A stretch of DNA of 24,317 bases from Escherichia phage CBA6, in the sequence record KM389296.1; one strand, 5' to 3'. Below are positions 467-17,573 of the stretch, one piece after another. Position 1 is the stretch's first letter. The number at the start of each line of letters is the position of its first letter. Both the position numbers and the translations under genes were made by a program. The notes below the pieces were generated by a model that ran no database searches, was not told the origin of the DNA, and saw nothing but the letters and a program-made list of their open reading frames with translations.

Positions 467-2092
467 ATGGGTTTCAATATGTTAGACAACTTGCGTTGGT
501 TTTACGGGCGCGTTGAAGACGTGAACGATCCCGACCAGAACGGGCGCGTCGCTGTGCGCATCTATGGTGTACACACGGAAGATACCACTCTCTTACCTAC
601 CGAATTATTGCCTTGGGGTAAAATGCTCATGCCAGCATCTAACGCCTCCTCGGCAGGTTTAGGCTGGTCTCCAACGGGTATTACAGTCGGGTCGGATGTT
701 ATGGGATTTGCTTTGGATGAAGCATACCAAAATATTCGTATCGCCTGGGTTTGGCCAGCGGCGACACCAACGGATGGTTCAGACACAAACCCGTTGGCGC
801 TGGGCCAGGTTGTTCAATCTATAGAAAGACAGAAATATAACGCCGTTGAAAATGTTCCTGTCAAGATTGAAGACGACCCACAACCAGAACCTCAACCGCC
901 TGTGGACGGTTATGATCCTGAGAAATGGATGACAGTGGCTCGTGGTGAATTAGGTGTCAAAGAATATTCTGGCAAATTCAATAATAACCCAAGGATTTTG
1001 GAATATCACAAGACAACATCTTTGGGCGCTTCGGAAGATGAAGTCAGCTGGTGCGCTTCATTTGTGGGATGGGTGTTGATCCAAGCAGGATACACTTCAA
1101 CGCGCTCGGCTTTGGCTCGTTCATATTTGCAATGGGGTTCCCCTTTGTCGGAACCCCGCTACGGCGCTGTTGTTGTATTCCGGCGTGGCAACAACCCAAC
1201 ATTCGGACACGTTGCGTTCGTGCAGAAATTCGATGCCAATTATGTTTGGTGTATTGGAGGCAACCAATCAGATTCTGTGAAGGTGAGTCGCTTCAGCCGC
1301 TCATCTGTGTTGGGTTATCGTTGGCCTGGTCCTGCTACGACAGCATCGGCGGCTCCTGCGCAACAAAATGGTAAATGGTCTGAGCCAATCCCTGATCGTA
1401 CACCAAAAGTTCAGGAAACTCCGCCCCCTTCTGGGCGTGTTCAAGATATTGATAACACAGGAGAGGTGTCGGTTCCTTCTGCTGGCGGGTCTCGTTATCC
1501 TTACAACAATGTCATGGCATCTCGGTCAGGGCATATCATGGAGGTTGATGACACACCAGGCGGGGAACGTCTCCATTGGATGCACTCCTCGGGGTCTTAT
1601 AAGCAGATGCTTCCTGACGGGGACGTGGTCAATAAATCAGTCAAAGATCATTATGATCTGACGATGTTTGACAAACGTTACTATGTTGGTCGTGATCACA
1701 ACCTGACCATTGGTGGGACTGAAGTTCAGCGCAAGACAGGTGAGGTCTATCATCTACATTCATCGAACTACTCCAATGTGGTTGCTGGCACGGCGTTGAT
1801 GAAATTTTCACAGCTGGCCGAAATTCAGGCGCAAAACGTGATGCGTATCATCTGTGAGATGTTGGAAGTTTCCAATACTTTAAAAGTGCCTAAAATACTG
1901 GCGAGTGAAATAGTTTGTGATAAGTTGTCGGTGGCGCAGACTATTGAAGGCAACATCAAATATGCTGAAGGTGCTGGTCGTGCTGCATCACGCGCTGGGG
2001 CAACTCCAGTATCTACTTCTGGTCCTGGTCCAATTGATATAAAACCGGAACTGGAGGATAATGGCGGCAACTTTGGTGGTAAAGACGCATGA
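467..2092 (+). CDS. Baseplate central hub/spike protein (gp5-like) with cysteine-peptidase (CHAP/NlpC-P60-like) cell-wall hydrolase domain
   Basis: N-terminus MLDNLRWFYGRVEDVNDPDQNGRVAVRIYGVHTED resembles the gp5 N-terminal OB domain; Pro-rich linker; central Cys...His segment (VSWCASFVGWV ... GHVAFV) typical of CHAP/NlpC-P60 amidases; conserved-looking HIMEVDDTPGGERLHW segment. An alternative start at ATG 479 is possible. Confidence 0.8.
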   Translation: MGFNMLDNLRWFYGRVEDVNDPDQNGRVAVRIYGVHTEDTTLLPTELLPWGKMLMPASNASSAGLGWSPTGITVGSDVMGFALDEAYQNIRIAWVWPAATPTDGSDTNPLALGQVVQSIERQKYNAVENVPVKIEDDPQPEPQPPVDGYDPEKWMTVARGELGVKEYSGKFNNNPRILEYHKTTSLGASEDEVSWCASFVGWVLIQAGYTSTRSALARSYLQWGSPLSEPRYGAVVVFRRGNNPTFGHVAFVQKFDANYVWCIGGNQSDSVKVSRFSRSSVLGYRWPGPATTASAAPAQQNGKWSEPIPDRTPKVQETPPPSGRVQDIDNTGEVSVPSAGGSRYPYNNVMASRSGHIMEVDDTPGGERLHWMHSSGSYKQMLPDGDVVNKSVKDHYDLTMFDKRYYVGRDHNLTIGGTEVQRKTGEVYHLHSSNYSNVVAGTALMKFSQLAEIQAQNVMRIICEMLEVSNTLKVPKILASEIVCDKLSVAQTIEGNIKYAEGAGRAASRAGATPVSTSGPGPIDIKPELEDNGGNFGGKDA

Positions 2093-2537: not shown

Positions 2538-2872
2538 AGAACGTCGGCGGCGGAACGTTTCGTCACTATCTCAAAATGTGTTAATAAACGATATAATATT
2601 TTCCCACCCGTTCTGTGGACTATGGTGGTTGGTTTCAGATTAACCACCATACCATCCAAATGACCTGTCAACACAAATGTCAGACGGATGCGTAAGACGT
2701 CGGTGTCTTCAGAACACATTATTTGGCAATCATGGCTATATCCTATTTGCTTTCCCTTTAGAACCAGAGGGATACGGACTTTTTCCTTTAACAGAATATC
2801 CAAATTTTCAAATAAAGGACCTTCCTTTTTGTGAGTAGAGTACACCGTTTCTAATATCGGGAATTTGTACAT
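2534..2872 (-). CDS. Hypothetical protein (112 aa)
   Basis: ATG start 2 nt after the stop of the upstream minus gene (TGAtATG); no clear Shine-Dalgarno; convergent 4-nt overlap with gp25 stop. No recognisable motif. Confidence 0.4.
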   Translation of the reverse strand: MYKFPILETVYSTHKKEGPLFENLDILLKEKVRIPLVLKGKQIGYSHDCQIMCSEDTDVLRIRLTFVLTGHLDGMVVNLKPTTIVHRTGGKILYRLLTHFEIVTKRSAADVL

Positions 2873-2873
2873 A

Positions 2874-3332
2874 TCATGGCACCAAAGTAATGACGATCAT
2901 ATTGAGTACTGTGTCAACTGCGATACCAGAATCTTCTTCATGTATAGTTGATGCACGTAAATGAATGTCAGAAATATAATTGTCAATATGCATAGACGTC
3001 AGGTAAGGGCGGTGCTGGTACACAGGGCGATTGATCTGTACATATTCACGCAAGATGCTGAATGAAAAGTCTTCACATTGAGTGGTGTCAATTCGCAAAA
3101 AGCGTTGGGCGTGACAGGTCTTTAATTCAGTCACTTTTCCCAAATAATGAAGGTCTCCGAATGAACCGATGCGGAACATTACATCCACTTCAGATTTGAA
3201 AATTTCACGTTCAATAAGAGTCGCTGGTGCCCAACAAACTTCTTCCTTGTCTTCAGAAAACAACGTGTCTATCACTTCTGGTAATTGGATATAACCAAAG
3301 TTGTGGCGAGGGTTGGTGAGAATTTTATCCAT
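2874..3332 (-). CDS. Hypothetical protein (152 aa)
   Basis: ATG at 3332 preceded by the conserved leader AGCAGGAATTATATC; the track's 3353 start is TTG. No recognisable motif. Confidence 0.55.
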   Translation of the reverse strand: MDKILTNPRHNFGYIQLPEVIDTLFSEDKEEVCWAPATLIEREIFKSEVDVMFRIGSFGDLHYLGKVTELKTCHAQRFLRIDTTQCEDFSFSILREYVQINRPVYQHRPYLTSMHIDNYISDIHLRASTIHEEDSGIAVDTVLNMIVITLVP

Positions 3333-3409
3333 GATATAATTCCTGCTGTTCAATTTGTGGCGTTTGCCAATGAATTACTGGGAAGTATAGGCGGGAAGGT
3401 TTCAAAAGT

Positions 3410-3432
3410 AAAGCCCCTGGATCAGGGGCTTT
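3410..3432 (-). terminator. Rho-independent terminator after the nrdH-like gene
   Basis: Stem AAAGCCCCTG / CAGGGGCTTT with 3-nt loop; on the minus strand it is followed by ACTTTTGAAA. Confidence 0.55.
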
Positions 3433-3438
3433 GAAATA

Positions 3439-3663
3439 TCAACGTTTTAAACTTGCGGCGAGTCCAGTAACATCGGTCACGGTTTGATCAGCCAGGACAA
3501 TCACGGGCATAGACATGCGTTGCTTACCAGTGATTTTCTGTAATTCTTCCAGCTTGTAATCTTTATCAAGTTTCAGAATCTTGTGTTCAATACCGCGAAT
3601 GCGGCAGATGTTTTCGGCTTGTAAACACTGCGCACAACCTTGTTTGGAATAGATCGTAATCAT
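3439..3663 (-). CDS. nrdH: NrdH-like glutaredoxin/redoxin (74 aa)
   Basis: Small redoxin with N-terminal CxxC (YSKQGCAQCLQ) directly downstream of nrdB. Confidence 0.7.
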   Translation of the reverse strand: MITIYSKQGCAQCLQAENICRIRGIEHKILKLDKDYKLEELQKITGKQRMSMPVIVLADQTVTDVTGLAASLKR

Positions 3664-3672
3664 TTCTCACCT

Positions 3673-4776
3673 TTAAACAAATTTCAGACCGTCGGAGACT
3701 GATCCAGTAAGGACACCAGTCAGATAATCAGGGGCTTCCGCTTCCTGTAATGCGTATTGCATTGTTTTATTATCTAGCCACTCATTTATCCATGGAACCG
3801 GATTGTCTTTACGGGCTTGCCCAGGGTACGGGTGGCCAATCGCGCCCATACGATGTGTTGCTAGCCAATCAACCATTTGGTGTAAGATATTTGCGTTCAG
3901 ACCCAGCATGGATCCGTCTTTGAACAGATAGTTCGCCCACTCTTTCTCTTGGTTGACCACATCCACATACATCTGGGTCATTTCGCCACGCAGTTCTTCA
4001 CGGATGATACCAAAATCAGGGTCCAACAACGGAAGACGATTCAGGAAAGTCTGTGTCAGAATGAGGTGATCTTGCTCGTCACGAGCGATCTGGCGAATAA
4101 TCTTGGCATTACCTTCCATTTTGTTGAGGAATTGCATGAATGCCCAAGAGCATGCGAATGAAACATAGAAACGGACGCCTTCGAGGGAGTTAGCAGCAAA
4201 CAGAGCACGCCAGAATGCACGCTTGGCGTTCATGATGTCTTCACGGGTGAACGCGCGTCCAGCCATACGCATCCCGCTGTAACGCACCATGTCGTCGTAG
4301 TATACGCTGATCTGTCCGGCGCAATCTACGATCTCCTCAACGTCCAGAACATGGTCAAAAACGATACCAGGATCATTCACTGTGTTACGAAGGATATGCG
4401 TGTAAGATAGTGAGTGGATGGCTTCTTGGCGCGTCCATTCCAGAATAGCAAATTGCGCTTCTGGTGTTGATGCCCACGGGCCAAACGCTTCGAACGGAGC
4501 AGCGCCCTGAATAGAGTCCAGCATGGTTTGGCGTTTCAGGTTGCTGAAGTAGATGTGTTGTTCCGCAGCGGATAGAGTGGCAAAGTCCGCTTTGTCTTTG
4601 GTGACATCCACTTCTTCCGGACGCCAGAATTGGCTGAGGCCTTTTTCATACCATTTTTGAACAAAAGGCCAAGCCACTTTGTCATAACGCTGGATACTTA
4701 CAGGGTCGCCAAAGAATGGCAGTCCTGTATTATTTGAAGATGGATCGAATACTGAGAATTGCTTTTGTTCGTTCAT
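3673..4776 (-). CDS. nrdB: Ribonucleotide reductase class Ia beta subunit
   Basis: Collinear with E. coli NrdB: FFGDPVSIQRYD, FWRPEEVDV, SYTHIL, RFYVSFACS, MEGNAKIIRQIARDE, PWINEWL. Uninterrupted. Confidence 0.95.
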   Translation of the reverse strand: MNEQKQFSVFDPSSNNTGLPFFGDPVSIQRYDKVAWPFVQKWYEKGLSQFWRPEEVDVTKDKADFATLSAAEQHIYFSNLKRQTMLDSIQGAAPFEAFGPWASTPEAQFAILEWTRQEAIHSLSYTHILRNTVNDPGIVFDHVLDVEEIVDCAGQISVYYDDMVRYSGMRMAGRAFTREDIMNAKRAFWRALFAANSLEGVRFYVSFACSWAFMQFLNKMEGNAKIIRQIARDEQDHLILTQTFLNRLPLLDPDFGIIREELRGEMTQMYVDVVNQEKEWANYLFKDGSMLGLNANILHQMVDWLATHRMGAIGHPYPGQARKDNPVPWINEWLDNKTMQYALQEAEAPDYLTGVLTGSVSDGLKFV

Positions 4777-4796
4777 GTTTCTTTCCTGATGAATAA

Positions 4797-4814
4797 GGGG
4801 TGACGAATCACCCC
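4797..4814. other. Intercistronic hairpin between nrdA and nrdB
   Basis: GGGGTGA / TCACCCC stem with CGAA loop; no clean T-tract on either strand. Confidence 0.35.
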
Positions 4815-4846
4815 TGATATTAAACGATTGTGTGGTATAGACCTAA

Positions 4847-7123
4847 TCAGACAACACAGGTGTCGCAAATTTCTTCAACTTGTTTCAACTCTTCATCTTC
4901 CTTAGAGTCTTTGTTGGTGTTGTAATACAGAGTTTTACCACCCCACATGTAGAAAGACAGAATATCCTGCATCATGAGAGAGCGCGGGATCTTCCCGTCT
5001 GGGAATTTCTCTGGATCATAATGTGTATTAACGCTGATGGATTGGTCTACCCAACGCTGGGCGACCGCCGCTGTTTTCAAATAGTCGATACAAGACAGAT
5101 TCCATTTCAGGTCATATAGAGGACCAAGGGTTTCAACGTCCGGAACGATCTGCTTGTAAACGCCATCCTTGCTGCCTTTGATACTGATGAGGCCTTTGGG
5201 TGGCTCTATACCATTCGTGGCGTTCAGCACCTGAGAGGAGCTTTCAGTTGGTGCTATCGCCAAGAGAGTAGCATTGCGGATACCATGGCAACGCAGAGAG
5301 TCTTTCAAACCGTCCCAGTCAAGGCCGTATGCCATACCTTCCGGCTTTTTACCATTGGGGAGGATATCCAGCGGCAACGGTTGAAGGTCGGCTGTTATCT
5401 TACCAGAACGATGAATGGTTTCCTTCTTACATGCCCCAAACTTCATGGCCAGACGATTCGAAGCCTTTACCAGATAGAAATGCAGGTGCGCCATCCACTT
5501 GTCCAGGAGTTCTAACCCAACAGGAGATCCATACCCTGTGAAGTTCTTGGCGAAGAAATGTGCAACGTTGACGACACCGATACCCAGAGGACGATATTCT
5601 TCCACAGCCAGACGGGCTTGACGTGCTGGATAATCTTGGTATTCCAGCAGCATATCCAAAGCTGAAACCAAGACATATGCAACGTCTTCCATTTCTGTCG
5701 GGTCTTCAAACGCCGTCAGGTTAAAAGAGGCCAAAGTACACAGAGCGATCCGACCTTCTTCATCGTCGTACTGTTGGAATTCACGAGTAGGAAGCGCAAT
5801 CTCCAGACACAGATTAGAACTATAGATTGTATCTAGATTGAATGGGCTGTACTGGTTCATGTGGTCGACAAACGCGATGTAGATGCGGCCTGTATCTGAA
5901 CGCTGATCCAACAACATCTGGAATACTTCTTCCGCATTCATCTTCTTGGCACGAACCAAACCAGCATCAGCAGCTTTGACCATGTTGTCGTACAGGGTAC
6001 GGAACTTATCGACATCTGCGAAAAACGCTTCGTACATATCGCGGTTGTCTTTCGGATCGAACAAATACAGGGGTTGTTTGTTCACCAGACGTTCGAACAT
6101 GACGCGGTTGATCTGAATACCATAGTCGATACGGCGTTCACGGTTCTCTTCAAGACCACGGTTGTTCTTCAGGACCACAACATCATCAAATTGATAATGC
6201 CAGATAGGGATATAGCAAGTTGCTGATCCGCCACGAATACCGCCTTGAGAGCAAGACTTTAATGCCCCAGTCAGATATTTTATGAAAGGAACCAGGCCTG
6301 TGTGCACCATTTCACCTTTTCGGATAGGGCTACCGATGCCACGAATTGCTCCAACATCAAATCCGATCCCAGCGCGTTTGGATACATAATCAACAATACT
6401 TTTGGCTGTAGCATTGATTGAGTCCAAAGTGTCACCGGTTTTGATAAGAACACAAGAACTGAATTGGCGGGTTGGGGTACGAACGCCGGACATGATGGGT
6501 GTTGGAAGACTGAATTTACCTGTACTGGCGTATTCATAAAATTTCTTCACCATCGTCAGGCGAGTTTCTTTATCCCATGCAGAGAACAGAGCCATCGCGA
6601 TCGCCATATACATGACTTGAGGCGTTTCGTAATATACTTTGCTGTCTGCTGAGCGATCGCGCAAAAGATATTTTTGCGTGAGCTGGCCCATAGCCGCCCA
6701 AGTAAAATTCTTGTCGCGTTTGTGATTGATGACCGTGTTCAGTTCTTCAAATTCTTCTTTCGTATAGAGTTCGAGGAATTCACGATCATAAACGCCCTGC
6801 TTGATGTTTTTAGCGAATATATCAAGCAAGTGAGGTGGCTTGTATCGCCCATAGACGACTTTGCGCAGGTCATACGATTTCAGGCGGGCAGCAACATATT
6901 GGTAGTTGGGTTTTTCTACAGAAATCAATGTAGCCGCCGCTTGGATGATAATATCCTGAATGCGTTCGGTTTTCATATTGTCTGTGAACTGAATCTTCGA
7001 TGCTGCTTCCACCTCAGACACCGAAACTCCTTCTAATCCTTCACAGGCACGTTCAAGAACAGTGTGGAGTTTTTCAATGTCAAAGGGGACAGAAGATCCG
7101 TCCCGCTTTATGATGTTAATCAT
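4847..7123 (-). CDS. nrdA: Ribonucleotide reductase class Ia alpha subunit
   Basis: N-terminal ATP-cone (IKRDGSSVPFDIEKL), PTPIMSGVRTPTRQFSSCVLI, NLCLEIALPT, C-terminal Cys pair; collinear with E. coli NrdA. GAGGA Shine-Dalgarno 8 nt upstream. Confidence 0.95.
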   Translation of the reverse strand: MINIIKRDGSSVPFDIEKLHTVLERACEGLEGVSVSEVEAASKIQFTDNMKTERIQDIIIQAAATLISVEKPNYQYVAARLKSYDLRKVVYGRYKPPHLLDIFAKNIKQGVYDREFLELYTKEEFEELNTVINHKRDKNFTWAAMGQLTQKYLLRDRSADSKVYYETPQVMYMAIAMALFSAWDKETRLTMVKKFYEYASTGKFSLPTPIMSGVRTPTRQFSSCVLIKTGDTLDSINATAKSIVDYVSKRAGIGFDVGAIRGIGSPIRKGEMVHTGLVPFIKYLTGALKSCSQGGIRGGSATCYIPIWHYQFDDVVVLKNNRGLEENRERRIDYGIQINRVMFERLVNKQPLYLFDPKDNRDMYEAFFADVDKFRTLYDNMVKAADAGLVRAKKMNAEEVFQMLLDQRSDTGRIYIAFVDHMNQYSPFNLDTIYSSNLCLEIALPTREFQQYDDEEGRIALCTLASFNLTAFEDPTEMEDVAYVLVSALDMLLEYQDYPARQARLAVEEYRPLGIGVVNVAHFFAKNFTGYGSPVGLELLDKWMAHLHFYLVKASNRLAMKFGACKKETIHRSGKITADLQPLPLDILPNGKKPEGMAYGLDWDGLKDSLRCHGIRNATLLAIAPTESSSQVLNATNGIEPPKGLISIKGSKDGVYKQIVPDVETLGPLYDLKWNLSCIDYLKTAAVAQRWVDQSISVNTHYDPEKFPDGKIPRSLMMQDILSFYMWGGKTLYYNTNKDSKEDEELKQVEEICDTCVV

Positions 7124-7162
7124 AGCGATCCTCGGTTTGTGTTAATGCAGGCTGTTATTATA

Positions 7163-7189
7163 CGTCGCCTCCATGGATTGAAGGCGACG
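7163..7189. other. Hairpin in phoH-nrdA intergenic region
   Basis: 8-bp stem CGTCGCCT / AGGCGACG with 11-nt loop; on the minus strand followed by TATAATAACAG. Confidence 0.3.
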
Positions 7190-7207
7190 GGGAAGTTCGT
7201 GTGGTAT

Positions 7208-8047
7208 TTAAATGTTGTACAGGTCGTTAATTTCTAACATCAGGCGGGTGAAGTTACCGCGACCATTACGATCAGACTTATCGAATTCGATGATGCTGAA
7301 TGGCTGAACCCACTCAGGATATTCATCTCCGATTTCTACACCGTCAATTTGCAAAGAACCTGTTTCCAGCTTGTTGTTGAAGTCTTTAAAGGAATCCACA
7401 TACGTCTGTAACGCACTATCACGCAGTCGCTTGTTAGACTGTTTGATATCTCCATTCACGAAGATGTACGAAGAATCTGAAGCACGAGTCAATAAGTTTT
7501 TCAGTTGCTCCATATCGCATTCCTGCGCCTCTTCGATAATCAGGAAACAATCATCGAAAGTCATCCCCTTCACAGTTTCAAGGTCTTGAATTTCTATGAT
7601 GCGTTTCTCCCACAGATAGTTGAAGAAACCGTCGGAACCCGTATCTGTTTTGAGAACCTTTTTGAATGTCTGTATGAGCGGCATCAAATAAGGCATCAGC
7701 TTTTCATATGTGTCACCAGGCCGGAACCCCGCTGTGGTTCCAGTCGGTAAAGGAGAACGCGTGATGATAATCTTGTTGATGGTTTTGTCAATCAGATGCT
7801 TGGCAGCAGCGGACGCACCACAATAGGATTTGCCTGTACCTGCCGGACCGATAGCGATAGTGAGATGTTCATTGAGTGCGGATTGATATGCGAGGTTCTG
7901 ATTTTCTGAGAGGCCATTGAACGGAGCAATTTTGAAATCGCCTTTGGAAAACTTCATCCAGTCTTCTTCCTTCTGGATGGTGTCTTTCTTACGAGCAGAT
8001 TTTGTCTTCGCTGGCTTCATGGATACAACTTTAGACGCAGATTGCAT
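7208..8047 (-). CDS. phoH: PhoH-like ATPase
   Basis: Walker A AIGPAGTGKSY and Walker B-like FLIIEEAQ. The track's 8083 start is GTG; ATG 8047 has an AGGAAGG Shine-Dalgarno. Confidence 0.9.
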   Translation of the reverse strand: MQSASKVVSMKPAKTKSARKKDTIQKEEDWMKFSKGDFKIAPFNGLSENQNLAYQSALNEHLTIAIGPAGTGKSYCGASAAAKHLIDKTINKIIITRSPLPTGTTAGFRPGDTYEKLMPYLMPLIQTFKKVLKTDTGSDGFFNYLWEKRIIEIQDLETVKGMTFDDCFLIIEEAQECDMEQLKNLLTRASDSSYIFVNGDIKQSNKRLRDSALQTYVDSFKDFNNKLETGSLQIDGVEIGDEYPEWVQPFSIIEFDKSDRNGRGNFTRLMLEINDLYNI

Positions 8048-8128
8048 GTTGAACCTTCCTATATCTACAGGGGTTGTCGACACCTTTAATTAAGCGACGT
8101 GCCCAGCATACCTGTATGTTAGATAAAG

Positions 8129-8152
8129 AAAAAGGCCGTTTCCGGCCTTTTG
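8129..8152 (-). terminator. Rho-independent terminator after the endolysin gene (bidirectional in form)
   Basis: Stem AAAGGCCG / CGGCCTTT with TTTC loop immediately after the stop; on the minus strand followed by TTTTTCTTTATC. Confidence 0.65.
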
Positions 8153-8947
8153 TTAACAGAAACTCTTGTATGCCGCCGCTAGTTTGGTGTCATACTGGTT
8201 CTTGGCATATGCTGGACCATTGTACCGACGGGCGAACTCAGCCCAATTTTTGTTCTTCAATGCTTTCCACATATTGGCGTCAGCTTTGATGAATTTCACA
8301 AATGCCAGAAGATGTGCGCGTTCACCAGTCAGAAAATCTGTGAACATTTCTTTGGCGTTCGGATAACCACATATCTGGCAATTGAACCCCATGATCTGGA
8401 ATAAGCCGTAGGACGCACTCTCGTACGCGCAATCCTCATCAAGGGCGATTGCACCCTGAAGGCGTTCCAACTCCGCGTCTCCGCCGATATAGCCACCAGA
8501 ATTGGGGTTAACCAATGTTGGGTAAAGTTGGTACAGAGCATTGGCTCTTGCTTGTCCGAATTTAGCCGCCACTTTCTTATACATGATGTGGCGCTCGAAC
8601 AGAGTTTTGATCTTACCTGTTTTGGTGAAACCCGTTCCCCGAGATTCGACCTGGTTAACAGCTTTCATGCTGGCCAGTTCGACACCAAGTTCACGCGCTG
8701 CGTCAACTAAGTCGGCTTCGGTAAGATGTTCCTGATGAGCGTCTCCGGCATTACGGATAGCATAGAAGGTTTTTGGACCTGCAATACCATCAATCACCAG
8801 TCCGGCACCTGCCTGAACGGATTTGACAGCATTCTCGGTCGCTTTGCCAAATATGCCATCAGCTACAAGAGAGAACCCGATTTTATTGAGGCTTTGCTGA
8901 AGTGATTTGACTTCAGAACCTCGGTTGCCAAGTTTTAGAATGGCCAT
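8153..8947 (-). CDS. Endolysin: N-terminal peptidoglycan-binding domain plus C-terminal muramidase-like catalytic domain
   Basis: N-terminus LKLGNRGSEVKSLQQSLNKIGF...DGIFGKATENAVKSVQ is PG_binding_1-like; C-terminus (FERHIMYKK, GLFQIMGFN, NWAEFARRYNGPAYAKNQYDTKL) recalled as N-acetylmuramidase-type. No signal peptide or TM segment. Confidence 0.75.
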   Translation of the reverse strand: MAILKLGNRGSEVKSLQQSLNKIGFSLVADGIFGKATENAVKSVQAGAGLVIDGIAGPKTFYAIRNAGDAHQEHLTEADLVDAARELGVELASMKAVNQVESRGTGFTKTGKIKTLFERHIMYKKVAAKFGQARANALYQLYPTLVNPNSGGYIGGDAELERLQGAIALDEDCAYESASYGLFQIMGFNCQICGYPNAKEMFTDFLTGERAHLLAFVKFIKADANMWKALKNKNWAEFARRYNGPAYAKNQYDTKLAAAYKSFC

Positions 8948-8951
8948 AAGA

Positions 8952-8982
8952 AAATACCTCCGCAGTGATTGCAGAGGTATTT
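8952..8982 (-). promoter_or_regulatory. 5' leader hairpin sequestering the endolysin Shine-Dalgarno
   Basis: 9-bp outer stem plus 3-bp inner stem; the GGAGGT Shine-Dalgarno (8956-8961) lies in the stem, 8 nt before ATG 8947; a TTTAAATA box (8978-8985) overlaps the 5' arm. Confidence 0.45.
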
Positions 8983-9017
8983 AAAGTGAAAGTGAACTGA
9001 CTTGAGGAACTGTTATG

Positions 9018-9323
9018 TTAGATAGTTGACAAAAGAGTGTTCAGACTAACGATCTGCATTTGAATGCCTCTCTTCAGACTTTCATATGCCTCCACTGGTG
9101 AAGGCACGGAGTTAGATTGCTTATTCCCACCATAAGTCTGAGCCGACCAGCGGCCAGTGTCTTGCCAGTAGAAGAGGACGGCTGTTGACTCTCCGCTATC
9201 AATCATGATCGCCCCTACGCCATCAGGGTGATCTTTGAACAACTGATGCTTCCACTGCTTGCCTGTCTTTTCCTTCAGGAGGTGGCATGTTGCTTCGCCG
9301 ATTTGTTCGAGGGTCAGTTTCAT
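9018..9323 (-). CDS. Hypothetical protein (101 aa)
   Basis: ATG start overlapping the upstream stop (ATGA); no TM segment, so not a holin. Confidence 0.5.
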   Translation of the reverse strand: MKLTLEQIGEATCHLLKEKTGKQWKHQLFKDHPDGVGAIMIDSGESTAVLFYWQDTGRWSAQTYGGNKQSNSVPSPVEAYESLKRGIQMQIVSLNTLLSTI

Positions 9324-9508
9324 CGCGCAACCACCACAGGCATAATTTCGTTGAAGGCTTCACGGACTTCAGTGTCGTACCCGTATTTTTCCAGGATCGT
9401 TAGCATTGCTTGCTCGATTTCTTCTTGAAACTGAGGGAAATGAACTTCAGGGATTCTGGTTATAACCCAGATAGCACCTTCTGAAGCGTGGATAATCGGA
9501 CGTCCCAT
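9320..9508 (-). CDS. Hypothetical protein (62 aa)
   Basis: ATG with AGGAG Shine-Dalgarno; coupled to the downstream gene; no TM segment. Confidence 0.45.
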   Translation of the reverse strand: MGRPIIHASEGAIWVITRIPEVHFPQFQEEIEQAMLTILEKYGYDTEVREAFNEIMPVVVAR

Positions 9509-9537
9509 GATAATCTCCTACCAAAAATCTGAATAAG

Positions 9538-9557
9538 GAGGGGAGTTGCCTCCCCTT
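9538..9557 (-). terminator. Rho-independent terminator after the 162-aa gene
   Basis: Stem GGGGAG / CTCCCC with TTGC loop; on the minus strand followed by TCCTTATTCAGATTTTTGG. Confidence 0.5.
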
Positions 9558-9562
9558 GGGTC

Positions 9563-10051
9563 TTATGCCAGTTTGCTCACCAGAGTTTCAACGGCGTCTG
9601 CGCTCAGTTTACCCATTTTGACATACTGGGATTTTGCTTCACCGCCAGCGGCTTTCACGATATCGCTGTTGTCGTAACCTTTTTTCGGGAATACCATCAC
9701 AGAGAAGGTTCCGTTGTTCAGCGGGTTCAGCTGGATGCGCCCTTTTCCGACAGTGATGGTGCCGTAAGTTTCGGTCGTAGCTTCAACAACGTGGATGTCG
9801 TGTCCAAGGTCTTTCAGCATGCCAACTTTGTCAGCGGTTTTTGCTACGACTGCTTTATCAACCACAACCTGCTCAACCAGGGTGAAGCCGTTGGTCGCTT
9901 TGACTTTGCCGTTCAGCAGGTTCATGAAGGAAGTTTTGCCACCAGTGAAGCCAGCTGCCTGAGCGATGCGGAACATTTCAACTTTTGCAACTTCAGTGTT
10001 CAGTTCAAAAGAGATGGTGCCGTTGGTGATCAGAGTTTTGGTAGTAGCCAT
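9563..10051 (-). CDS. Hypothetical protein (162 aa), likely abundant
   Basis: ATG 10051 preceded by GAGGAATTACATC (conserved leader); the track's 10087 start is GTG. Thr/Gly/Val/Lys-rich; no recognisable motif. Confidence 0.6.
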   Translation of the reverse strand: MATTKTLITNGTISFELNTEVAKVEMFRIAQAAGFTGGKTSFMNLLNGKVKATNGFTLVEQVVVDKAVVAKTADKVGMLKDLGHDIHVVEATTETYGTITVGKGRIQLNPLNNGTFSVMVFPKKGYDNSDIVKAAGGEAKSQYVKMGKLSADAVETLVSKLA

Positions 10052-10201
10052 GATGTAATTCCTCATAATGTAGTTGGTTCGTTTCACTTTTCATTCGGCG
10101 GGGTGTTGTGTACCGCCCTATGTGAACTATAATAGTGCATCATTATTGAAGAGTAAAGTCTTTTTCAATAAAATTTTAAAATATTTTTGAAGTATTTTAA
10201 G

Positions 10202-10222
10202 AGGCCTCATAGAACGAGGCCT
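10202..10222 (-). terminator. Terminator-like hairpin after the primase gene
   Basis: Stem AGGCCTC / GAGGCCT with 7-nt loop, followed on the minus strand by an A/T-rich tract. Confidence 0.45.
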
Positions 10223-10262
10223 GGAGGGAAATATTTTGAGTTAAAAAGTTTTAGGTCAGTTC

Positions 10263-11327
10263 TTATATCTTCCTCAAATCTGAAAACCTCAGGGACGCTG
10301 CCAACCCCTGATACACGTTCTTGGCTATGATCTGAAGCAAATCACGAATAGGGATGTTCCCCTTATCCGGATGGACCATATCGTTGATATCCTTCCATGG
10401 AATTTCTGGTGGGAACAGAACGACTTTGACTCCGCTGTCTATCATTTTCTGTATACCATCACAAACTTGTTTGTTTCGATATTGGTTGTCAGGGATATAG
10501 ATATCCCCCTTGGCGCTCAGAAGGTCAGCATCCGCAGTTGCTAAACAATTCGGGAGGAACAGGCTATCAATTGGACCTTCAACGACCAATTTGGTCTTAT
10601 TCCATATGATGCGCTCTTCCCCATAGATTTTAGTATCCTCGTTTTTGGGCTTGACAGTGGCGTACCGCAACACATTATCAGGAAGGTTATCACCGAATGC
10701 GCGCCCCTGAACGATCTTCATGCGACCGTCTTGAGTCCAGAATGGGATAACCAACCGTTCATCTTCAGGGATCTTCTTCTGTTTTTCAACGTCTGTTTCA
10801 AAATTCAAAAGATCCTCGCGGAAGTTCTTGCTGTAATACAAAAGAGATAACGCGCTCTCCGGCATTCCCCTGCCTTCCACGTAACGACGAGCAATATGGT
10901 CACGATCAAGTAAATCTAATCGTATCATGTTGCCGAGGTGCTCTTCATCTCTTTTGGCAACTTGGGAGCCGATACGCGCTGTTTGGGTGAGGCGCTGTAA
11001 TGGCTTGAGTTTTTGTAGGGGGCGTGAATTGGTGTCCCCCATGATTCTGAATTTTTCAAGATTATATTCGTTGTACAATCTCTCATCAAACTTCTTCAAC
11101 CAAAACTCAAACGACCAACCACTCATCTCGTTGCAGTTGTGACACTTAAAACGAAACACATCTTCATCGCGATCATAAAAGAAGTGACCACGACGTTTGT
11201 TGGCACTCTTCTTAGAGTCCCCGCATAGAGGGCAACGGAACTTGGCGACAGCGCCTACGCGTTCCCAGCTGAACTTGTCAAGTCGAGGGGCGAGGAAATT
11301 GATGTATTGTTCGTCTAAGAATTTCAT
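10263..11327 (-). CDS. DNA primase (T4 gp61-like)
   Basis: N-terminal zinc ribbon (FRCPLCGDSKKS ... FKCHNCNE) and TOPRIM-like acidic core (VVEGPIDSLF, ATADADLL); size matches T4 gp61. Confidence 0.85.
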   Translation of the reverse strand: MKFLDEQYINFLAPRLDKFSWERVGAVAKFRCPLCGDSKKSANKRRGHFFYDRDEDVFRFKCHNCNEMSGWSFEFWLKKFDERLYNEYNLEKFRIMGDTNSRPLQKLKPLQRLTQTARIGSQVAKRDEEHLGNMIRLDLLDRDHIARRYVEGRGMPESALSLLYYSKNFREDLLNFETDVEKQKKIPEDERLVIPFWTQDGRMKIVQGRAFGDNLPDNVLRYATVKPKNEDTKIYGEERIIWNKTKLVVEGPIDSLFLPNCLATADADLLSAKGDIYIPDNQYRNKQVCDGIQKMIDSGVKVVLFPPEIPWKDINDMVHPDKGNIPIRDLLQIIAKNVYQGLAASLRFSDLRKI

Positions 11328-11944
11328 CAGATATTTGGCCTTTGGAATACTTCTGTCACATTATAATTTACACCGCGACTTTGAGCTATGCAAAGCTGTC
11401 TCCATGCACCATATAGAATATTCTGCTCTGCGACTTGATTTCGTTCAAAGTGGGCGAATTCTTCCAACATCTGCTTGTATCCTAACAGATAGGGGGGAAT
11501 ATCTGTCGACCGCTTTTTGTCTAATGCTGTAGACAAATATTTTGCATAATGTTCCGGAGAAGACAAAGAAGAGTATTGCATATTCGGAACGTGAACGGGC
11601 TTCAATGATTTCCGAGGAGTGAAATATAATAATCCCCACTTTGGTGGGAGATCTTCAACTTTGATCACATCAGCGGGACAAACATAAAATCGGTATGCCC
11701 CCATTCCTGTTGAAGGATCCATTCTGTGCGGTTTCTTTTTATCGGTTAGGAAATCAGAACGAGAAACTTTCACTTCCATGAGGATAGAGCAACCGCCAGG
11801 CCTGAAACCGATGGCGTCTGGGGACTCACGATTATCAAAAGAATTTGGTTCTACAAACACAGCGCCACAGTTCATTTGCTTGTGAAGATATTTTGCTGCG
11901 ATTTGACAACCTTCTGAATGTGAAGGGATGAATATTTTGCCCAT
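11327..11944 (-). CDS. Putative PD-(D/E)XK-fold nuclease-like protein (205 aa), translationally coupled to primase
   Basis: Stop TGA overlaps the primase ATG (TGATG); motif PDAIGF...ILMEVKVSRSDF has the D...E-x-K pattern. Fold assignment is tentative. Confidence 0.5.
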   Translation of the reverse strand: MGKIFIPSHSEGCQIAAKYLHKQMNCGAVFVEPNSFDNRESPDAIGFRPGGCSILMEVKVSRSDFLTDKKKPHRMDPSTGMGAYRFYVCPADVIKVEDLPPKWGLLYFTPRKSLKPVHVPNMQYSSLSSPEHYAKYLSTALDKKRSTDIPPYLLGYKQMLEEFAHFERNQVAEQNILYGAWRQLCIAQSRGVNYNVTEVFQRPNI

Positions 11945-12006
11945 TGTTATCTGTATCCTATTGATGACGAATGGGCAAATTATAACCTGAAGGATGTTCT
12001 ATTGAG

Positions 12007-12360
12007 TTAAGACAATTGCTTCAGTTTGTAGATGGTCTGATAGCACAGGGTTTTGATTTCATCGAGCGTATTTTGAAGATGGCTGTCACATTGACCGTAA
12101 ATTCCGTTTACGTCGATAACAACGCTATTGACATACGATATAGGATCTGGGTTGTACAGTTTAATATTCTCAAACCCTGGGACATATACACCACCCGCGC
12201 CGATATATGCCTCTGTAAAGGTATCCAGCAAGTCCTCCAGTTCCCCGTAGAACTCCCCGAGTGCCTTGTGCTTGGCATAGGACGTTGTAACGAAGTGGAG
12301 GGCATGAGAGTGGGCTATAGCAAGCAGTCCACGGTTGATGAAAATACTCGCGTTAACCAT
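12007..12360 (-). CDS. Hypothetical protein (117 aa)
   Basis: ATG with GAGGAAACAATC Shine-Dalgarno; preceded by a terminator hairpin. Confidence 0.55.
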   Translation of the reverse strand: MVNASIFINRGLLAIAHSHALHFVTTSYAKHKALGEFYGELEDLLDTFTEAYIGAGGVYVPGFENIKLYNPDPISYVNSVVIDVNGIYGQCDSHLQNTLDEIKTLCYQTIYKLKQLS

Positions 12361-12382
12361 GATTGTTTCCTCAGAAAAAGAA

Positions 12383-12404
12383 ATCCCCCTGTATTTAGGG
12401 GGAT
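12383..12404 (-). terminator. Rho-independent terminator after the 190-aa gene
   Basis: Stem ATCCCCCT / AGGGGGAT with 6-nt loop; on the minus strand followed by TTCTTTTTCTG. Confidence 0.6.
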
Positions 12405-12420
12405 CTTCATTTCACCACGA

Positions 12421-12993
12421 TTAAATCGGTTTCACTCCGATGTACTTGGCGATATCCGCGGCCAGGGTTTTCCCCTTACTGATATCTTGTTGCTTGCCAC
12501 CAACAGTAACGATCACATATGGGTCATCTTCACCGCCGAAGTCGATTGCCACGGCCTTGCCAATACCAGGGATGCCGGAATATTCATATTCAGTGCGACC
12601 GCTTTTGCGAGACTTGCCGACACCCAGCGCTTTACCGATCATCTTATCCATGTTCGCTAGTTCTTGAGCATAGGATTCTGTGACCTGGCCTTTGCTGGCG
12701 TCTTTACCAAAGAAGAATTCGTATCCGTCATGAACGGCAACAACATCTTTGCCCACAGAAACCGCATGAACCTGGTCCGGCGTCAGTTTCACTTTAGTAG
12801 TATTACCATTAGTCAATTCCAGATTATAGACATCGGCCTGATTATCAGGAGTGATCTGGGTCACGGTAGCGCCGGAGCACCATTGTGTTCCATCGGCTTG
12901 TTTAGTGATGGTTACACTTTTGCCTTGTATACCGCCATGAGTTTGCGGCTGCTGGGCTTGTTCTTTAAAATATTCGATAAACGGTTTCATCAT
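12421..12993 (-). CDS. Hypothetical protein (190 aa)
   Basis: ATG with AGGAG Shine-Dalgarno; flanked by hairpins at both ends; Gly/Lys-rich; no recognisable motif. Confidence 0.6.
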   Translation of the reverse strand: MMKPFIEYFKEQAQQPQTHGGIQGKSVTITKQADGTQWCSGATVTQITPDNQADVYNLELTNGNTTKVKLTPDQVHAVSVGKDVVAVHDGYEFFFGKDASKGQVTESYAQELANMDKMIGKALGVGKSRKSGRTEYEYSGIPGIGKAVAIDFGGEDDPYVIVTVGGKQQDISKGKTLAADIAKYIGVKPI

Positions 12994-13019
12994 GGATCTC
13001 CTAAGGATTTTGATGTATT

Positions 13020-13041: not shown

Positions 13042-15762
13042 TTATTTCAGACGGATCTGGAGATTACCACCCAGTGATTGTTCATATTCACTGTAAGCAC
13101 TGTCACCATTGCTCATAGCCCATTCGTCCGACTGACGGGCGCTATCCAAAGTCATGAGATTCGGTTCGGTCGGGTTGTATCCCTTCGCCTTCGCATCGTT
13201 GTATACCGTTTGCAGGTACTGGTTGGCACGGTTAATCTGATCTTTGAACTCACGATATGCACCTTCGGTTGTGTTGCGACGGAAGGTGATACTCCAATCG
13301 ACGTTAAGAACTGCGCCGCTATTGGTCACGTATACCTGCCAATCAAGATCTCGTCCGTTGGGAGCACTGTTGCGGATGGAATCGGAATATGTGGCCAGAT
13401 CGCTGCTGTTCTTGCCCCCAGCAGCTTGGTCTTTGGCGCGAGCCAGGGCATCAATGACTGCAGTGCGGTTTCTAGACTGCGCCAGATCTTTGTCTTGGAA
13501 CATAATTGCACCAAACTTACTGACGGTGATATCATTCAGAAACAGCTTGTTCGGGTTATAGTTTGATGAACTGAGATGGCTCAATTGAGCCGCAGCGTCT
13601 TTCAGGCGTTGTGAAGTCTCATTCAACGCATCTTGCACAGACTTGACAGATAACTGAATGTCATATCCGCTGCTGTTGACTACATTTCGGCCATTTTCGG
13701 TCAGCATGGTCGTGATGTTGGCCTTATTACGATCGAAGTCGTAAGTCACGTTCGTAACGAACCGTGCGGCTTGCAGCTGGCTACCCGCAGGGAACTGGAA
13801 GTCCCAAGCCACAGAGAACCCATGAACGGTTTCACCAAATATCTTCGCATTGCTTGGGGCTTTCAGGTTCGCAGTGATGACAGCGTTATCACTGGAATTT
13901 GTGTTGATTTCGCCGAAGATAGTCTTCCCATCAGAAGACTGGACCATCAGAGTATCTTTGCTGCGCCAGTCATAACGAACAATAAACGTCGTTCGAGGGA
14001 ACTCTTTTATCAGATCGAGTTTGACTGCCTTACCCAGAGTAAAACGATTTAACAATGCATCGGCGATCTTCAAAGTAAACGAAATACAATCGACATAAGA
14101 ATAACCCTGGGAACGGGAAACCTTTTGAATCGGGTATGGGGCACCGTTGATCGGAACAACACGACATTCCACTTCACCTTTGAACTGAGAATCAGCAGCG
14201 CGGGATATCGCACTGACGATTTCAAAAGCAGCGTTTTTCACGTCGCCTTCCAGCAGCAGCTGTTCATTGCCAGATAAATCAGAAACCACTTCTACAGAGA
14301 GTTTGCTGTTGACAATCCCCCAAAAATAGACTTGAATATCCAACCCGCCAGAAGTTCGATATTTGCCAGCACCAACCCGAGACAATTTTTCACCAGCATA
14401 CATGCCGACTTGCTGAGGAGCATATGTATCAACGATGCCCAAGATGCGGGCGATATAACCCTGGTTGCGCAGATCATCCATAGAACCGGTTTTTGGAAGA
14501 GTTTTCATGTCGACGGGAGCAGTAGCCCCTATTCCAAACTCGACGTATGCCACGATCTTCCCACCAGACTTCAGTTCCCAGCCCATTCCCTGACGGTCTG
14601 AAGCCGCCATGATTTTGCGATCCACTTCTCCACGCCCGACATATTCTTTGTTGAATACCGTCACTTGTGCGATAGACTGAGTGCGGGCAATCTTCGCCAT
14701 CGCGCCATCTTTGACCATGATAGCCAGGTCATTGGAACTCAGGGTCACGTCGTTCGCGCCGACCACCTTCACAACAGAACTGAAGATGCCGTTGGACTTT
14801 GCCATAACGGAGATGTTCCAGTCCGGATTTATGGAAGACGGTGCATCAGCATCAACGTCAACAGTCAAAACCACTTGCCCACCTTTCTTGAACACATACT
14901 GATCATAGATGCCTTTATTTTGTTTTGTCATGACAGCGCCGACCAGATCCTGGTTAGTGAATCCCCGCTTCATGCTCCATGCCACTTCGGTGCCGTCCGG
15001 ATATTTGTCGAAATCATACCCAAAGAACTTCGCCACTTCACGTGAGCCACTGACCAGCTGCACGTAATTTCCGCGAATTGGGTCACGGCCATTTTTCAGT
15101 TCAAGACTAGTGTCAGAACTGTTATACCATTGGCGGTTTACTTCAATCTCGGTGCTGGAGCCAGTCCCAACATCAGGGGTGTTGTTCTGAACCGGAACGT
15201 CTCCGACTTTGTCTGGATCGTCCCAAGTCACGCCTTTCATTTTCGGACCATCAAATACCTGAGCAGGATCCTTGCCTTTACGCACAACCCATACGAAGGC
15301 ACGGTCAGGGATTGGGGTATAAGTCAGATCCATGACGTTGAGTTTCTGCTTCAGACCAGATTGACGAATAATTTTTGGGAGTAACGTCGTTCCGCGTTCT
15401 AGAGCTTTCTTGGAGAAGTTAATCGCAAACCCATCAATGGTTTTACCCAGCGGTGTCGCCATGAATTGTTTAGTCGCTTCGATCATGGATGCGATGACAC
15501 GCATTGGGTTTTTGAAACGACCGATTGCGTCTGGATAGGTTGAACCACGTTTCTGGCCTATGAAGACCTGACGAACGTTCTTGCCCAGCCCCTGCGGGGT
15601 ATAAAATTGGATGCGGAATTCTTTTTCATCTTCGTCTACGAACGTGAAGAAAATGTCACCAGCATTTTTCTTGCCGAAAGTCAATTCGTATGGAGCGGAG
15701 TTAAACGCTTCGTCCAATTGTTTGGACTCGTCAAGGAAATTTAAGAAAGATTGGATGGCCAT
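13042..15762 (-). CDS. Large hypothetical protein (906 aa), function unknown
   Basis: Uninterrupted 2.7-kb ORF with ATG and AGGAG Shine-Dalgarno (AGGAGAATTACAATG); bracketed by hairpins; no catalytic motif recognised. Confidence 0.8.
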   Translation of the reverse strand: MAIQSFLNFLDESKQLDEAFNSAPYELTFGKKNAGDIFFTFVDEDEKEFRIQFYTPQGLGKNVRQVFIGQKRGSTYPDAIGRFKNPMRVIASMIEATKQFMATPLGKTIDGFAINFSKKALERGTTLLPKIIRQSGLKQKLNVMDLTYTPIPDRAFVWVVRKGKDPAQVFDGPKMKGVTWDDPDKVGDVPVQNNTPDVGTGSSTEIEVNRQWYNSSDTSLELKNGRDPIRGNYVQLVSGSREVAKFFGYDFDKYPDGTEVAWSMKRGFTNQDLVGAVMTKQNKGIYDQYVFKKGGQVVLTVDVDADAPSSINPDWNISVMAKSNGIFSSVVKVVGANDVTLSSNDLAIMVKDGAMAKIARTQSIAQVTVFNKEYVGRGEVDRKIMAASDRQGMGWELKSGGKIVAYVEFGIGATAPVDMKTLPKTGSMDDLRNQGYIARILGIVDTYAPQQVGMYAGEKLSRVGAGKYRTSGGLDIQVYFWGIVNSKLSVEVVSDLSGNEQLLLEGDVKNAAFEIVSAISRAADSQFKGEVECRVVPINGAPYPIQKVSRSQGYSYVDCISFTLKIADALLNRFTLGKAVKLDLIKEFPRTTFIVRYDWRSKDTLMVQSSDGKTIFGEINTNSSDNAVITANLKAPSNAKIFGETVHGFSVAWDFQFPAGSQLQAARFVTNVTYDFDRNKANITTMLTENGRNVVNSSGYDIQLSVKSVQDALNETSQRLKDAAAQLSHLSSSNYNPNKLFLNDITVSKFGAIMFQDKDLAQSRNRTAVIDALARAKDQAAGGKNSSDLATYSDSIRNSAPNGRDLDWQVYVTNSGAVLNVDWSITFRRNTTEGAYREFKDQINRANQYLQTVYNDAKAKGYNPTEPNLMTLDSARQSDEWAMSNGDSAYSEYEQSLGGNLQIRLK

Positions 15763-16317: not shown

Positions 16318-16956
16318 TTAAGGTGTGGGATTGACGACAGGGATGTGAAATCTGATTCCAGCAACGATGTCCTTCAGCTGAGGCTTCCAGCCGTCCACCA
16401 GGCGGGACAACGCATTGGAACCAGGATAGACGATAATGATATCGCTTCCGGTAACATTATGCTGAGGGAATTGTGACATGTATTGCTCCATCGTCACACC
16501 TGTGTCAATCAATACAGGACCAACATCAGAAGATGCATATGTCGCGCCCAGACCGTCAATACCCCATGCCAGAATTCCATAATCGGGAATATTGGCTTCG
16601 GATGTTATGGTGTATCCGAAGATACGATTCAACGCCGAGAAGTCATAGACATTGTGAGCACTATCATATGCCAGATAACCTTTGGCCAACATATCAGCAA
16701 AGATCGCGTCTGTGTCGCCAGCGGCTGGGGTCGGAACGGTAAACAGTAGCTCACCTGCCGGAGGAGTAGGATACGTGCCGAGAGCATAAAGGCACCATGC
16801 GTCGACACATTTCTTGATAAACGCTTCGGGAGCAACATAATCAGCCAGGCGCATCGTTCCAGAATATTCAGAACTGATGATGCCTTCTTTTGCCCCCTGA
16901 ATCGCAATAAACACCATTAAGTGCTCGTATCCGGTCTGAGATGGAGTGATATTCAT
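16318..16956 (-). CDS. Hypothetical protein (212 aa)
   Basis: ATG overlaps the stop of the upstream SLT-like gene by 1 nt (TAATG); no signal peptide; no recognisable motif. Confidence 0.6.
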   Translation of the reverse strand: MNITPSQTGYEHLMVFIAIQGAKEGIISSEYSGTMRLADYVAPEAFIKKCVDAWCLYALGTYPTPPAGELLFTVPTPAAGDTDAIFADMLAKGYLAYDSAHNVYDFSALNRIFGYTITSEANIPDYGILAWGIDGLGATYASSDVGPVLIDTGVTMEQYMSQFPQHNVTGSDIIIVYPGSNALSRLVDGWKPQLKDIVAGIRFHIPVVNPTP

Positions 16957-17573
16957 TATCGGGTCCTCTTGAGTTTCTCAATCGTGCGCTTATTCATGGC
17001 GATCACTCCTGGGTCGACCTTCGGGTTTATTGCCATGCCTTTGAAAGACACACATCGTTGAAGATATTTAGCCTTCTTCACGACATCAGCAGCGTATGAA
17101 TTGGATTTTTGGTTACGACTGAAACCGGCATTGTAAGAGGAGAGCGATTTGCGGATGTTTTGGTTATGATACCCAAGCCAGAAATTCATTTCATCAAGGG
17201 CTGCATTGGCTGCGTACTCTTGATTGACCAGCAATTTAATCGCCACGTTGGCGTAACACTTCTGTGTTTTGCATCCCTCCCGTTTCCCAACGGTTTGGAC
17301 GCGATTTTGGAATGCCCCCATATTAGCCGATTTCAGGTTATTCCGCATGGATACCACATCTTCTCCGGCGCGGCTTTCCCTCCATGATATCGCGGCTAGG
17401 GTGAAACCAAGGTCTTGCTGTTTGCCTATGTGATAGGCAGTGGCCATAGTTGAAAGTTGCTGATCAGAAAATTCGTAATCACATTGGGTGGTACTTTGGG
17501 AAGCGTACACACTCCCGCTGGCAATGGTAAAGGTCACGGACAAGGCCATGGCCTTCAACGTTGTCATCGTCAT
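16956..17573 (-). CDS. Secreted lytic transglycosylase-like protein (SLT domain) with N-terminal signal peptide
   Basis: N-terminus MTMTTLKAMALSVTFTIASGSVYA looks like a Sec signal peptide; SLT family motifs in order: WRESRAG (catalytic E-S), NMGAFQ, SYNAGF, YAADVVKKAKY. Confidence 0.65.
   Translation of the reverse strand: MTMTTLKAMALSVTFTIASGSVYASQSTTQCDYEFSDQQLSTMATAYHIGKQQDLGFTLAAISWRESRAGEDVVSMRNNLKSANMGAFQNRVQTVGKREGCKTQKCYANVAIKLLVNQEYAANAALDEMNFWLGYHNQNIRKSLSSYNAGFSRNQKSNSYAADVVKKAKYLQRCVSFKGMAINPKVDPGVIAMNKRTIEKLKRTR

Follow-up and report, generated by a model that had tools for sequence, protein, structure and literature searches.

The closest described relatives of the gene considered here belong to PF06319 (DUF1052), a family currently named MmcB-like in Pfam, whose members are chromosomal, mostly alphaproteobacterial and SOS-regulated. 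The family, for which a structure is available from SPO1766 of Ruegeria pomeroyi (PDB 3dnx), has been placed in the PD-(D/E)XK superfamily (Steczkiewicz et al., PMC3424549), and the Caulobacter protein MmcB is described as an SOS-induced endonuclease of the PD-(D/E)XK type with a protective role against mitomycin C and cisplatin (PMC9578287). Here, we examine a 24,317-nucleotide (nt) stretch of Escherichia phage CBA6 (KM389296.1), referred to as a whole as the window, and within it a gene for a 205-amino acid (aa) protein that lies directly upstream of the gene for a gp61-type DNA primase. Fold, remote homology and residue conservation make it very probable that this protein is MmcB-like and adopts the PD-(D/E)XK fold. 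Our overall interpretation, which we favor with some reserve, is that of an MmcB-like PD-(D/E)XK enzyme that acts on phage DNA intermediates and is co-expressed with the primase.

The open reading frame (ORF) starts with ATG and spans 618 nt, encoding 205 aa plus the stop codon. Its product is identical in sequence to Maynard_117 and Marshall_117, and CBA120_gp083 falls into the same 90%-identity cluster as these proteins, all of which are described as “hypothetical” in every source. The counterpart in phage Vi01, Vi01_091c, is named “conserved uncharacterised protein” and is located directly upstream of Vi01_090c. Positions 10000-13000 of the window match 270 phage records overall and are 99.3-99.6% identical to the Salmonella phages FSL SP-029, FSL SP-063 and Vi01 (Kuttervirus, Ackermannviridae), while tblastn found orthologues of the ORF itself in 645 phage records, with identities between about 30% and 100%. 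Comparison with distant orthologues shows saturation at synonymous sites but non-synonymous differences (pN) of only 0.19-0.47, and against Vi01 the ratio of non-synonymous to synonymous change (dN/dS) is 0.045. The ORF is a real gene under purifying selection. Its guanine-cytosine (GC) content of 0.42-0.44 and its skew resemble those of the neighboring genes, with no compositional anomaly, and the encoded protein is basic, with an isoelectric point of 9.0.

The AlphaFold2 model of the protein has a mean predicted local distance difference test (pLDDT) score of 91.4 and a predicted template modeling (pTM) score of 0.88. It opens with helix alpha1 (residues 9-22), followed by strands beta1 (28-31), beta2 (44-48) and beta3 (52-58), helix alpha2 (62-69) and strand beta4 (84-89), after which come two further strands and then three C-terminal helices. 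These elements form the restriction-endonuclease-like alpha-beta-beta-beta-alpha-beta core of the PD-(D/E)XK superfamily. The conserved catalytic D...(D/E)-x-K of the superfamily is found on the second and third core strands, with D43 at the start of beta2, E57 on beta3 and K59 immediately after beta3. A reading of this DNA made from the letters alone, hereafter the sequence-only reading, had pointed to a D...E-x-K pattern suggestive of a PD-(D/E)XK nuclease; that pattern is present as D43, E57 and K59, in P42-D43 ... E57-V-K59, and the fold, the remote homology to MmcB and the conservation of the catalytic residues support the nuclease-like assignment. Structure prediction and profile-profile comparison, the checks it had proposed, returned a PD-(D/E)XK core and not a non-nuclease family.

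The link to MmcB emerges from profiles and structure only. A first homologue search yielded 51 homologues, and a profile built from 37 sequences, when compared to the PDB, matched 3dnx (E = 2.9e-4), followed by the Cas4 nuclease SSO0001 (E = 0.15). In hhalign, a family alignment of 84 sequences aligned to PF06319 proteins with a probability of 95.2% (E = 2.6e-8); the PF06319-annotated proteins were fetched via a 3dnx fragment, and the comparison spans only the N-terminal 80-100 residues of MmcB, as fragments. The alignment pairs D43, E57, K59, the motif S-R-x-D-F-x-x-D-x-K, D68 and K71 with their MmcB counterparts, and places E32 opposite a conserved MmcB glutamate and the E-x-K triplet opposite the MmcB E-C-K. 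The family signature E-C/V-K-x-S-R-x-D-F-x-x-D-x-K after the third strand is also found, as E57-V-K-V-S-R-S-D-F-L-T-D-K-K-K; PF06319 proteins read E-C-K-S-S-R-A-D-F-x-S-D-x-K, with SRADFxSDxK invariant among them. The closest structural similarity is likewise to a member of the MmcB-like/DUF1052 family, and the viral structures matched in BFVD include proteins named “MmcB-like DNA repair protein”. Among the PHROGs, the protein belongs over its full length to phrog_631 (function not assigned; E = 4.5e-82), to which phrog_9263, phrog_2776 and phrog_5429 are related; the match to the MmcB-type phrog_5429 (“DNA repair protein”; E = 1.4e-10) is a partial one, over residues 54-113.

A closer look at the active site shows that D43, E57 and K59, in the context SPD43AIGF...ILME57VK59, are invariant in 37 homologues and again in 84 diverse homologues. 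A D...E-x-K pattern is conceivable by chance in one sequence, but this invariance counters such an origin. The residues invariant across the 84 homologues are H9, E40, D43, E57, K59, D64, F65, D68, K71, G82 and R85, while E32, P42, R62, R74, W103-G-L and E173 are conserved in at least 90%; E32 holds this level in both alignments (A1 and A2). In the signature helix (Table 1), the invariance of D64, F65, D68 and K71 and the conservation of R62 and R74 at 90% or more are seen in both alignments as well. The sequence-only reading had made its proposal depend on the acidic and lysine residues being retained in homologues, and they are present and invariant. A catalytic set that is intact and invariant speaks for an active enzyme and against a degenerate fold, and we predict that the protein is probably catalytically active on nucleic acid.

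An exhaustive profile search recovered 7,457 clusters (50% identity) at E<=1e-3, and 1,389 at E<=1e-30. Judged by these sequences, the family is a distinct and large sister clade of MmcB/DUF1052, and in contrast to the chromosomal MmcB proteins it is mainly borne by phages and prophages. Compared to MmcB/DUF1052, the phage clade has the additional invariant residues H9, E40 and G82 and a P100/W103-G-L motif, and its Ackermannviridae branch carries a two-helix insertion at about residues 120-165. Current family libraries miss this clade. The CBA6 protein falls short of the PF06319 gathering threshold; among the 84 homologues, 12 match PF06319 weakly (best E = 6.5e-5), one with a listed score of 16.3 bits, below the 22-bit cut-off, and 15 match the Hjc model (best E = 0.0036). 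Archaeal Hjc, VRR-NUC and T7 endonuclease I have the superfamily core and catalytic motif in common with the protein and are likewise small and found in phage replication/recombination modules, although their sequence and structure matches to it are weak. Many members from outside the Ackermannviridae (P0030, P0039, P0041 and P0048; columns about 320-380 of A1) have a long coiled-coil-like C-terminal tail, which replaces the two-helix insertion of the Vi01 group and hints at different modes of oligomerisation or partner binding. Domain fusions in long homologues were not informative, being limited to one fusion with a TniB-like AAA+ ATPase (P0128) and otherwise sub-threshold matches.

The surroundings of the gene are summarized in Table 1. 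On the minus strand, the junction with the primase gene reads CCAAAGGCCAAATATCTGATGAAA, and the TGA/ATG overlap (TGATG) described in the sequence-only reading is there as an overlap of 1 nt. The primase is annotated as such in Vi01 and relatives. Depositors of the phages Marshall and Menlow annotated a ribosome-binding site where the primase AAGG lies, and the AGGA preceding the nuclease gene is annotated as one in Marshall, with a spacing equal to that of the AAGG. Marshall also carries an annotated terminator at the place equivalent to the hairpin upstream of the DUF5856 gene, and this hairpin probably ends the upstream transcription unit. The genes for DUF5856, nuclease and primase thus form an apparent three-gene transcription unit, within which the nuclease and primase genes are likely co-transcribed. 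Translational coupling between the two is possible, and would be plausible but unremarkable, given that the primase has a weak AAGG of its own and that overlapping genes are common in this genome. A T4-type late promoter, TATAAATA, is absent from the whole window, and a scan for sigma-70 promoters performed no better than on shuffled sequences.

Table 1. Features of the nuclease-primase region in the CBA6 window (positions refer to the window).
Feature	Coordinates	Strand	Remarks
205-aa MmcB-like PD-(D/E)XK nuclease-fold gene	11327..11944	minus	orthologue of Vi01_091c and CBA120_gp083
Predicted catalytic core codons	11768..11851	minus	E32, 11851..11849; D43, 11818..11816; E57, 11776..11774; K59, 11770..11768
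Signature S61-R-S-D64-F65-L-T-D68-K-K-K71-P-H-R74	11723..11764	minus	helix alpha2, directly after the E-x-K strand
TGATG junction	11325..11329	minus	nuclease stop 11329..11327; primase ATG 11327..11325; one base in common
gp61-type DNA primase gene	10263..11327	minus	354 aa; Vi01_090c; phrog_47 “DNA primase”, E = 4.4e-77
Weak Shine-Dalgarno-like AAGG	11339..11342	minus	11 nt upstream of the primase ATG, inside the nuclease coding sequence
Shine-Dalgarno-like AGGA	11956..11959	minus	11 nt upstream of the nuclease ATG
DUF5856 gene	12007..12360	minus	117 aa; Pfam DUF5856, E = 1.3e-28; phrog_858; just downstream of the terminator-like hairpin
Terminator-like hairpin	12381..12406	minus	10-bp stem with 5 G-C pairs, then a T-run; from a pattern scan

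The order nuclease-primase was seen in Kuttervirus, Taipeivirus and Nezavisimistyvirus, in two loci of 53% identity, and in Aeromonas phage TSW001 and Vibrio phage K475. The junction is a 1-nt overlap in Vi01 (Kuttervirus) and in Klebsiella phage Menlow (Taipeivirus), and a 4-nt overlap, ATGA, in Erwinia phage Bue1 and in the two 53%-identity loci (L019 and L020). In TSW001 (30-36% identity), a 1-nt spacer separates the gene from a downstream ORF of 1,065 nt that is annotated as hypothetical and was taken as the primase from its length, and in K475 (38% identity) one ORF of 120 aa lies between nuclease and primase. Three Taipeivirus-like loci (L015-L017; region about 4507-5892) have a spacer of 282 nt, together with an extra 164-aa ORF upstream; this ORF has no Pfam match, overlaps the nuclease start by 1 nt and may be an inserted mobile gene. 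The search for homologues at the same position in related phages, suggested in the sequence-only reading, has turned up a primase-adjacent gene in several Ackermannviridae genera and in more distant Aeromonas and Vibrio phages. The phage studied here is of the Vi01 type, not T4, and in Vi01-like phages the gene belongs to the core and keeps a constant place. In T4, the gp61-type primase gene is preceded by the small same-strand ORFs 61.1 and 61.2, and the statement that the CBA6 arrangement departs from the canonical T4 layout holds for these ORFs upstream of gene 61, the region to which the comparison was confined. The product of 61.2, at 208 aa, was considered as a diverged homologue and rejected (BLASTP E = 1.9; hhalign probability of 0.08%).

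Outside the Ackermannviridae the setting is different. In Vibrio phage MAR10, the homologue follows genes for DNA polymerase, a primase-helicase and a DEAD-box helicase, and temperate phages, those encoding Shiga toxin (Stx) among them, carry it in the early “ea” or “nin” region. Across 71 viral loci, the recurrent neighbors are DnaB, replication protein O, NinB, NinG, RdgC, a VRR-NUC protein and DNA methylases, and no conserved partner gene was found in these 71 loci. Varied neighbors with no conserved partner point to a stand-alone enzyme of the replication, recombination or repair module. One such homologue, a 171-aa protein of E. coli and Shigella prophages (L002:3992-4507; H3V26_gp06 of Stx2a prophage WGPS8), belongs to a cluster of 1,363 sequences from more than 1,000 contigs, all of them named hypothetical, and is a very common enterobacterial prophage gene.

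Taken together, the most likely function is that of a putative Mg2+-dependent DNA endonuclease in replication, recombination or repair, for which activity, metal dependence and substrate are predictions. In such an enzyme, E32, D43 and E57 would bind one or two Mg2+ ions, and K59 would position or activate the attacking water. The S-R-x-D-F-x-x-D-x-x-K...R helix, together with R85 and the C-terminal helix with E173, may form a family-specific substrate-binding surface. The protein is proposed to cut phage DNA intermediates, such as stalled or branched forks, flaps or damaged strands, and a role in the processing of replication, recombination or repair intermediates is, in our estimate, an even call. 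Within the Ackermannviridae, the nuclease and the gp61-type primase would share one transcript, in the order DUF5856, nuclease, primase, and with stop and start codons abutting, the levels of the two proteins may be linked. Any such effect of the overlap on translation, like any physical link to the primase, is a prediction. Among the three functions that the sequence-only reading had offered, a replication-associated nuclease fits the evidence best.

Several lines of evidence weigh against this interpretation. By itself, the protein matches nothing in Pfam (E<=10), NCBIfam or PADLOC, so that the link to MmcB is a remote one, and a single-sequence search of the PDB with it also returned nothing. 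The literature yielded no characterised member of the phage clade and nothing relevant on PD-(D/E)XK proteins of Ackermannviridae, nor was anything relevant found on CBA120 transcriptomics. At least five other same-strand gene pairs in the window overlap by 1 or 4 nt (9323/9320, 16956/16956, 18264/18261, 18575/18572 and 22795/22792), and since such overlaps are common in the genome, the one between nuclease and primase is real yet ordinary. The 282-nt spacer in L015-L017 shows that tight coupling of the two genes is not obligatory. Beyond the Ackermannviridae and relatives, the homologue is not adjacent to a primase and no partner is kept; the link to the primase may reflect no more than a frozen gene order. 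Finally, Vi01 already has a RuvC-like resolvase, gp46/47, RNase H, DexA, endonuclease V and another exonuclease, and with several nucleases already encoded, there is no obvious missing nuclease function for the protein to fill.

These observations bear on the alternatives as well. One is a Holliday-junction or branched-DNA resolvase, acting as a dimer in the manner of Hjc or T7 endonuclease I to debranch concatemers before packaging. The protein gave neither a significant match to the Hjc model (PF01870) nor close structural similarity to Hjc, and the proposal that it is the missing resolvase of Vi01 was rejected on account of the annotated RuvC-like resolvase Vi01_072c, whose presence weakens the resolvase explanation in general and leaves it unlikely. 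Alternatively, the protein could be a host-takeover nuclease that degrades or nicks unmodified host DNA and spares phage DNA with hypermodified thymidine, similar to T4 EndoII and EndoIV or T7 endonuclease I. Vi01-like phages contain hypermodified thymidines, no gene of the denA/denB type is annotated in Vi01, and a nuclease fold with an intact active site that appears to be expressed with the replication genes would suit such a role. However, temperate lambdoid and Stx prophages, like many other phages, commonly carry close members of the family, and such temperate phages are not known to modify their DNA or to destroy the chromosome of the host. This occurrence in temperate phages disfavors an ancestral role that depends on modification or degrades the host; in addition, MmcB, the closest relative that has been characterised, acts in repair, and the sequence gives no hint of modified-base recognition. 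We regard host takeover as quite unlikely.

A more specific version of the primase connection would tie the nuclease to the gp61-type primase as its dedicated partner in replisomes of the Ackermannviridae type, held at a fixed ratio through the stop/start overlap. By cleaving stalled or primed forks, or by processing primers and flaps, the nuclease would initiate recombination-dependent replication, and it might discriminate hypermodified phage DNA from unmodified DNA. Given as a whole, this proposal is a long shot. Even less probable is an accessory gene for anti-defence or competition between phages, or a mobile remnant, whose position next to the primase would be incidental. The homologues of Stx prophages do lie between int and exo, in the accessory “ea” region, the neighbors outside the Ackermannviridae are very variable, a homing endonuclease is annotated under the match in phage allotria, and L015-L017 carry their extra 164-aa ORF. 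On the other hand, the gene belongs to the core and holds its position from genus to genus, even where identity has fallen to about 30-38%, its GC content and skew are like those of its neighbors, and it is under strong purifying selection, with no flanking repeats or integrase-like genes; nor was there a PADLOC match at E<=10, in a library of defence genes that does not cover anti-defence genes and hence speaks neither for nor against the anti-restriction function offered in the sequence-only reading. The suggestion of a mobile-element remnant made there is not supported, in view of normal composition, deep synteny and purifying selection. Least probable of all, in our view, is that the protein retains the nuclease fold without catalysis and partners the primase by binding DNA or as a scaffold. 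Conserved adjacency with abutting codons, the basic character of the protein and the Ackermannviridae-specific helical insertion at residues 120-165, a possible interaction surface, would agree with it, but inactivated PD-(D/E)XK domains normally lose the acidic/lysine triad, which here is invariant in 84 distant homologues, most of them not adjacent to a primase.

In nearly all database records the protein is labelled “hypothetical”. The label “putative adenylosuccinate synthase” appears for Guerrero_89 (L094:1328-1945), in AR2819 and in Yersinia phage P400_06 (L012:3983-4483), and a study of Vi01-like phages lists the primase-adjacent gene under this name as core gene 41 of 114 (PMC10892097). 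We reject the label, as the protein has no Pfam or NCBIfam match, has a PD-(D/E)XK fold and is only 205 aa long. Adenylosuccinate synthase, PurA, has about 430 aa. The label seems to be spreading by annotation transfer.

Other observations concern the rest of the window. The DUF5856 protein is labelled “starvation-inducible transcriptional regulator” in PHROGs and RefSeq. Just upstream of the terminator hairpin, many Kutterviruses, including Marshall (L095:2411-2653) and Guerrero (L094:2411-2650), have an ORF of about 80 aa (about 240 bp) that is missing in the window, in Vi01 and in FSL SP-029. Within the nuclease coding sequence, a terminator-like hairpin at 11634..11649 (minus strand) lies over the conserved PPKWGL codons and is probably a chance match. 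The antisense ORF 11197..11532 is without support, and neither Rfam families nor tRNAs were found in the window. A second ORF of 205 aa in the window (16956..17573) was rejected as a paralogue (BLASTP E = 0.77; different PHROG). At 13042..15762 (minus strand), the mechanical ORF encodes 906 aa, compared to 2,400 nt (799 aa) for Vi01_094c and 787 positions in the phrog_3867 profile, which leaves an internal true start or a difference in Vi01 as explanations. The offset between the window and Vi01 shifts by 537 nt between the tail-lysozyme gene (467..2092, corresponding to Vi01 48036..49661) and the primase region, and Vi01 is therefore about 0.5 kb longer somewhere in the nrd/phoH/endolysin stretch (window about 2100-10000).

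Because databases call the gene hypothetical or mislabel it, the result is a useful annotation and not a new kind of system. The MmcB-like assignment gives the gene a testable function and corrects a spreading annotation, for a gene that is among the 114 core genes of the Vi01-like phages used for biocontrol of Salmonella and E. coli O157. It also reveals a very large, mostly phage-borne nuclease branch, of about 7,450 clusters at 50% identity and with a gene of many E. coli and Shigella prophages among them, that is invisible to Pfam and NCBIfam. If the nuclease did prove to be a dedicated partner of the primase, the two would make up a primase-nuclease module not known from T4, and several thousand clusters for which Pfam has no model would receive a first function. 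For experiments on how Vi01-like phages handle their replication intermediates, the conserved neighborhood of nuclease and primase offers a sensible point of departure.

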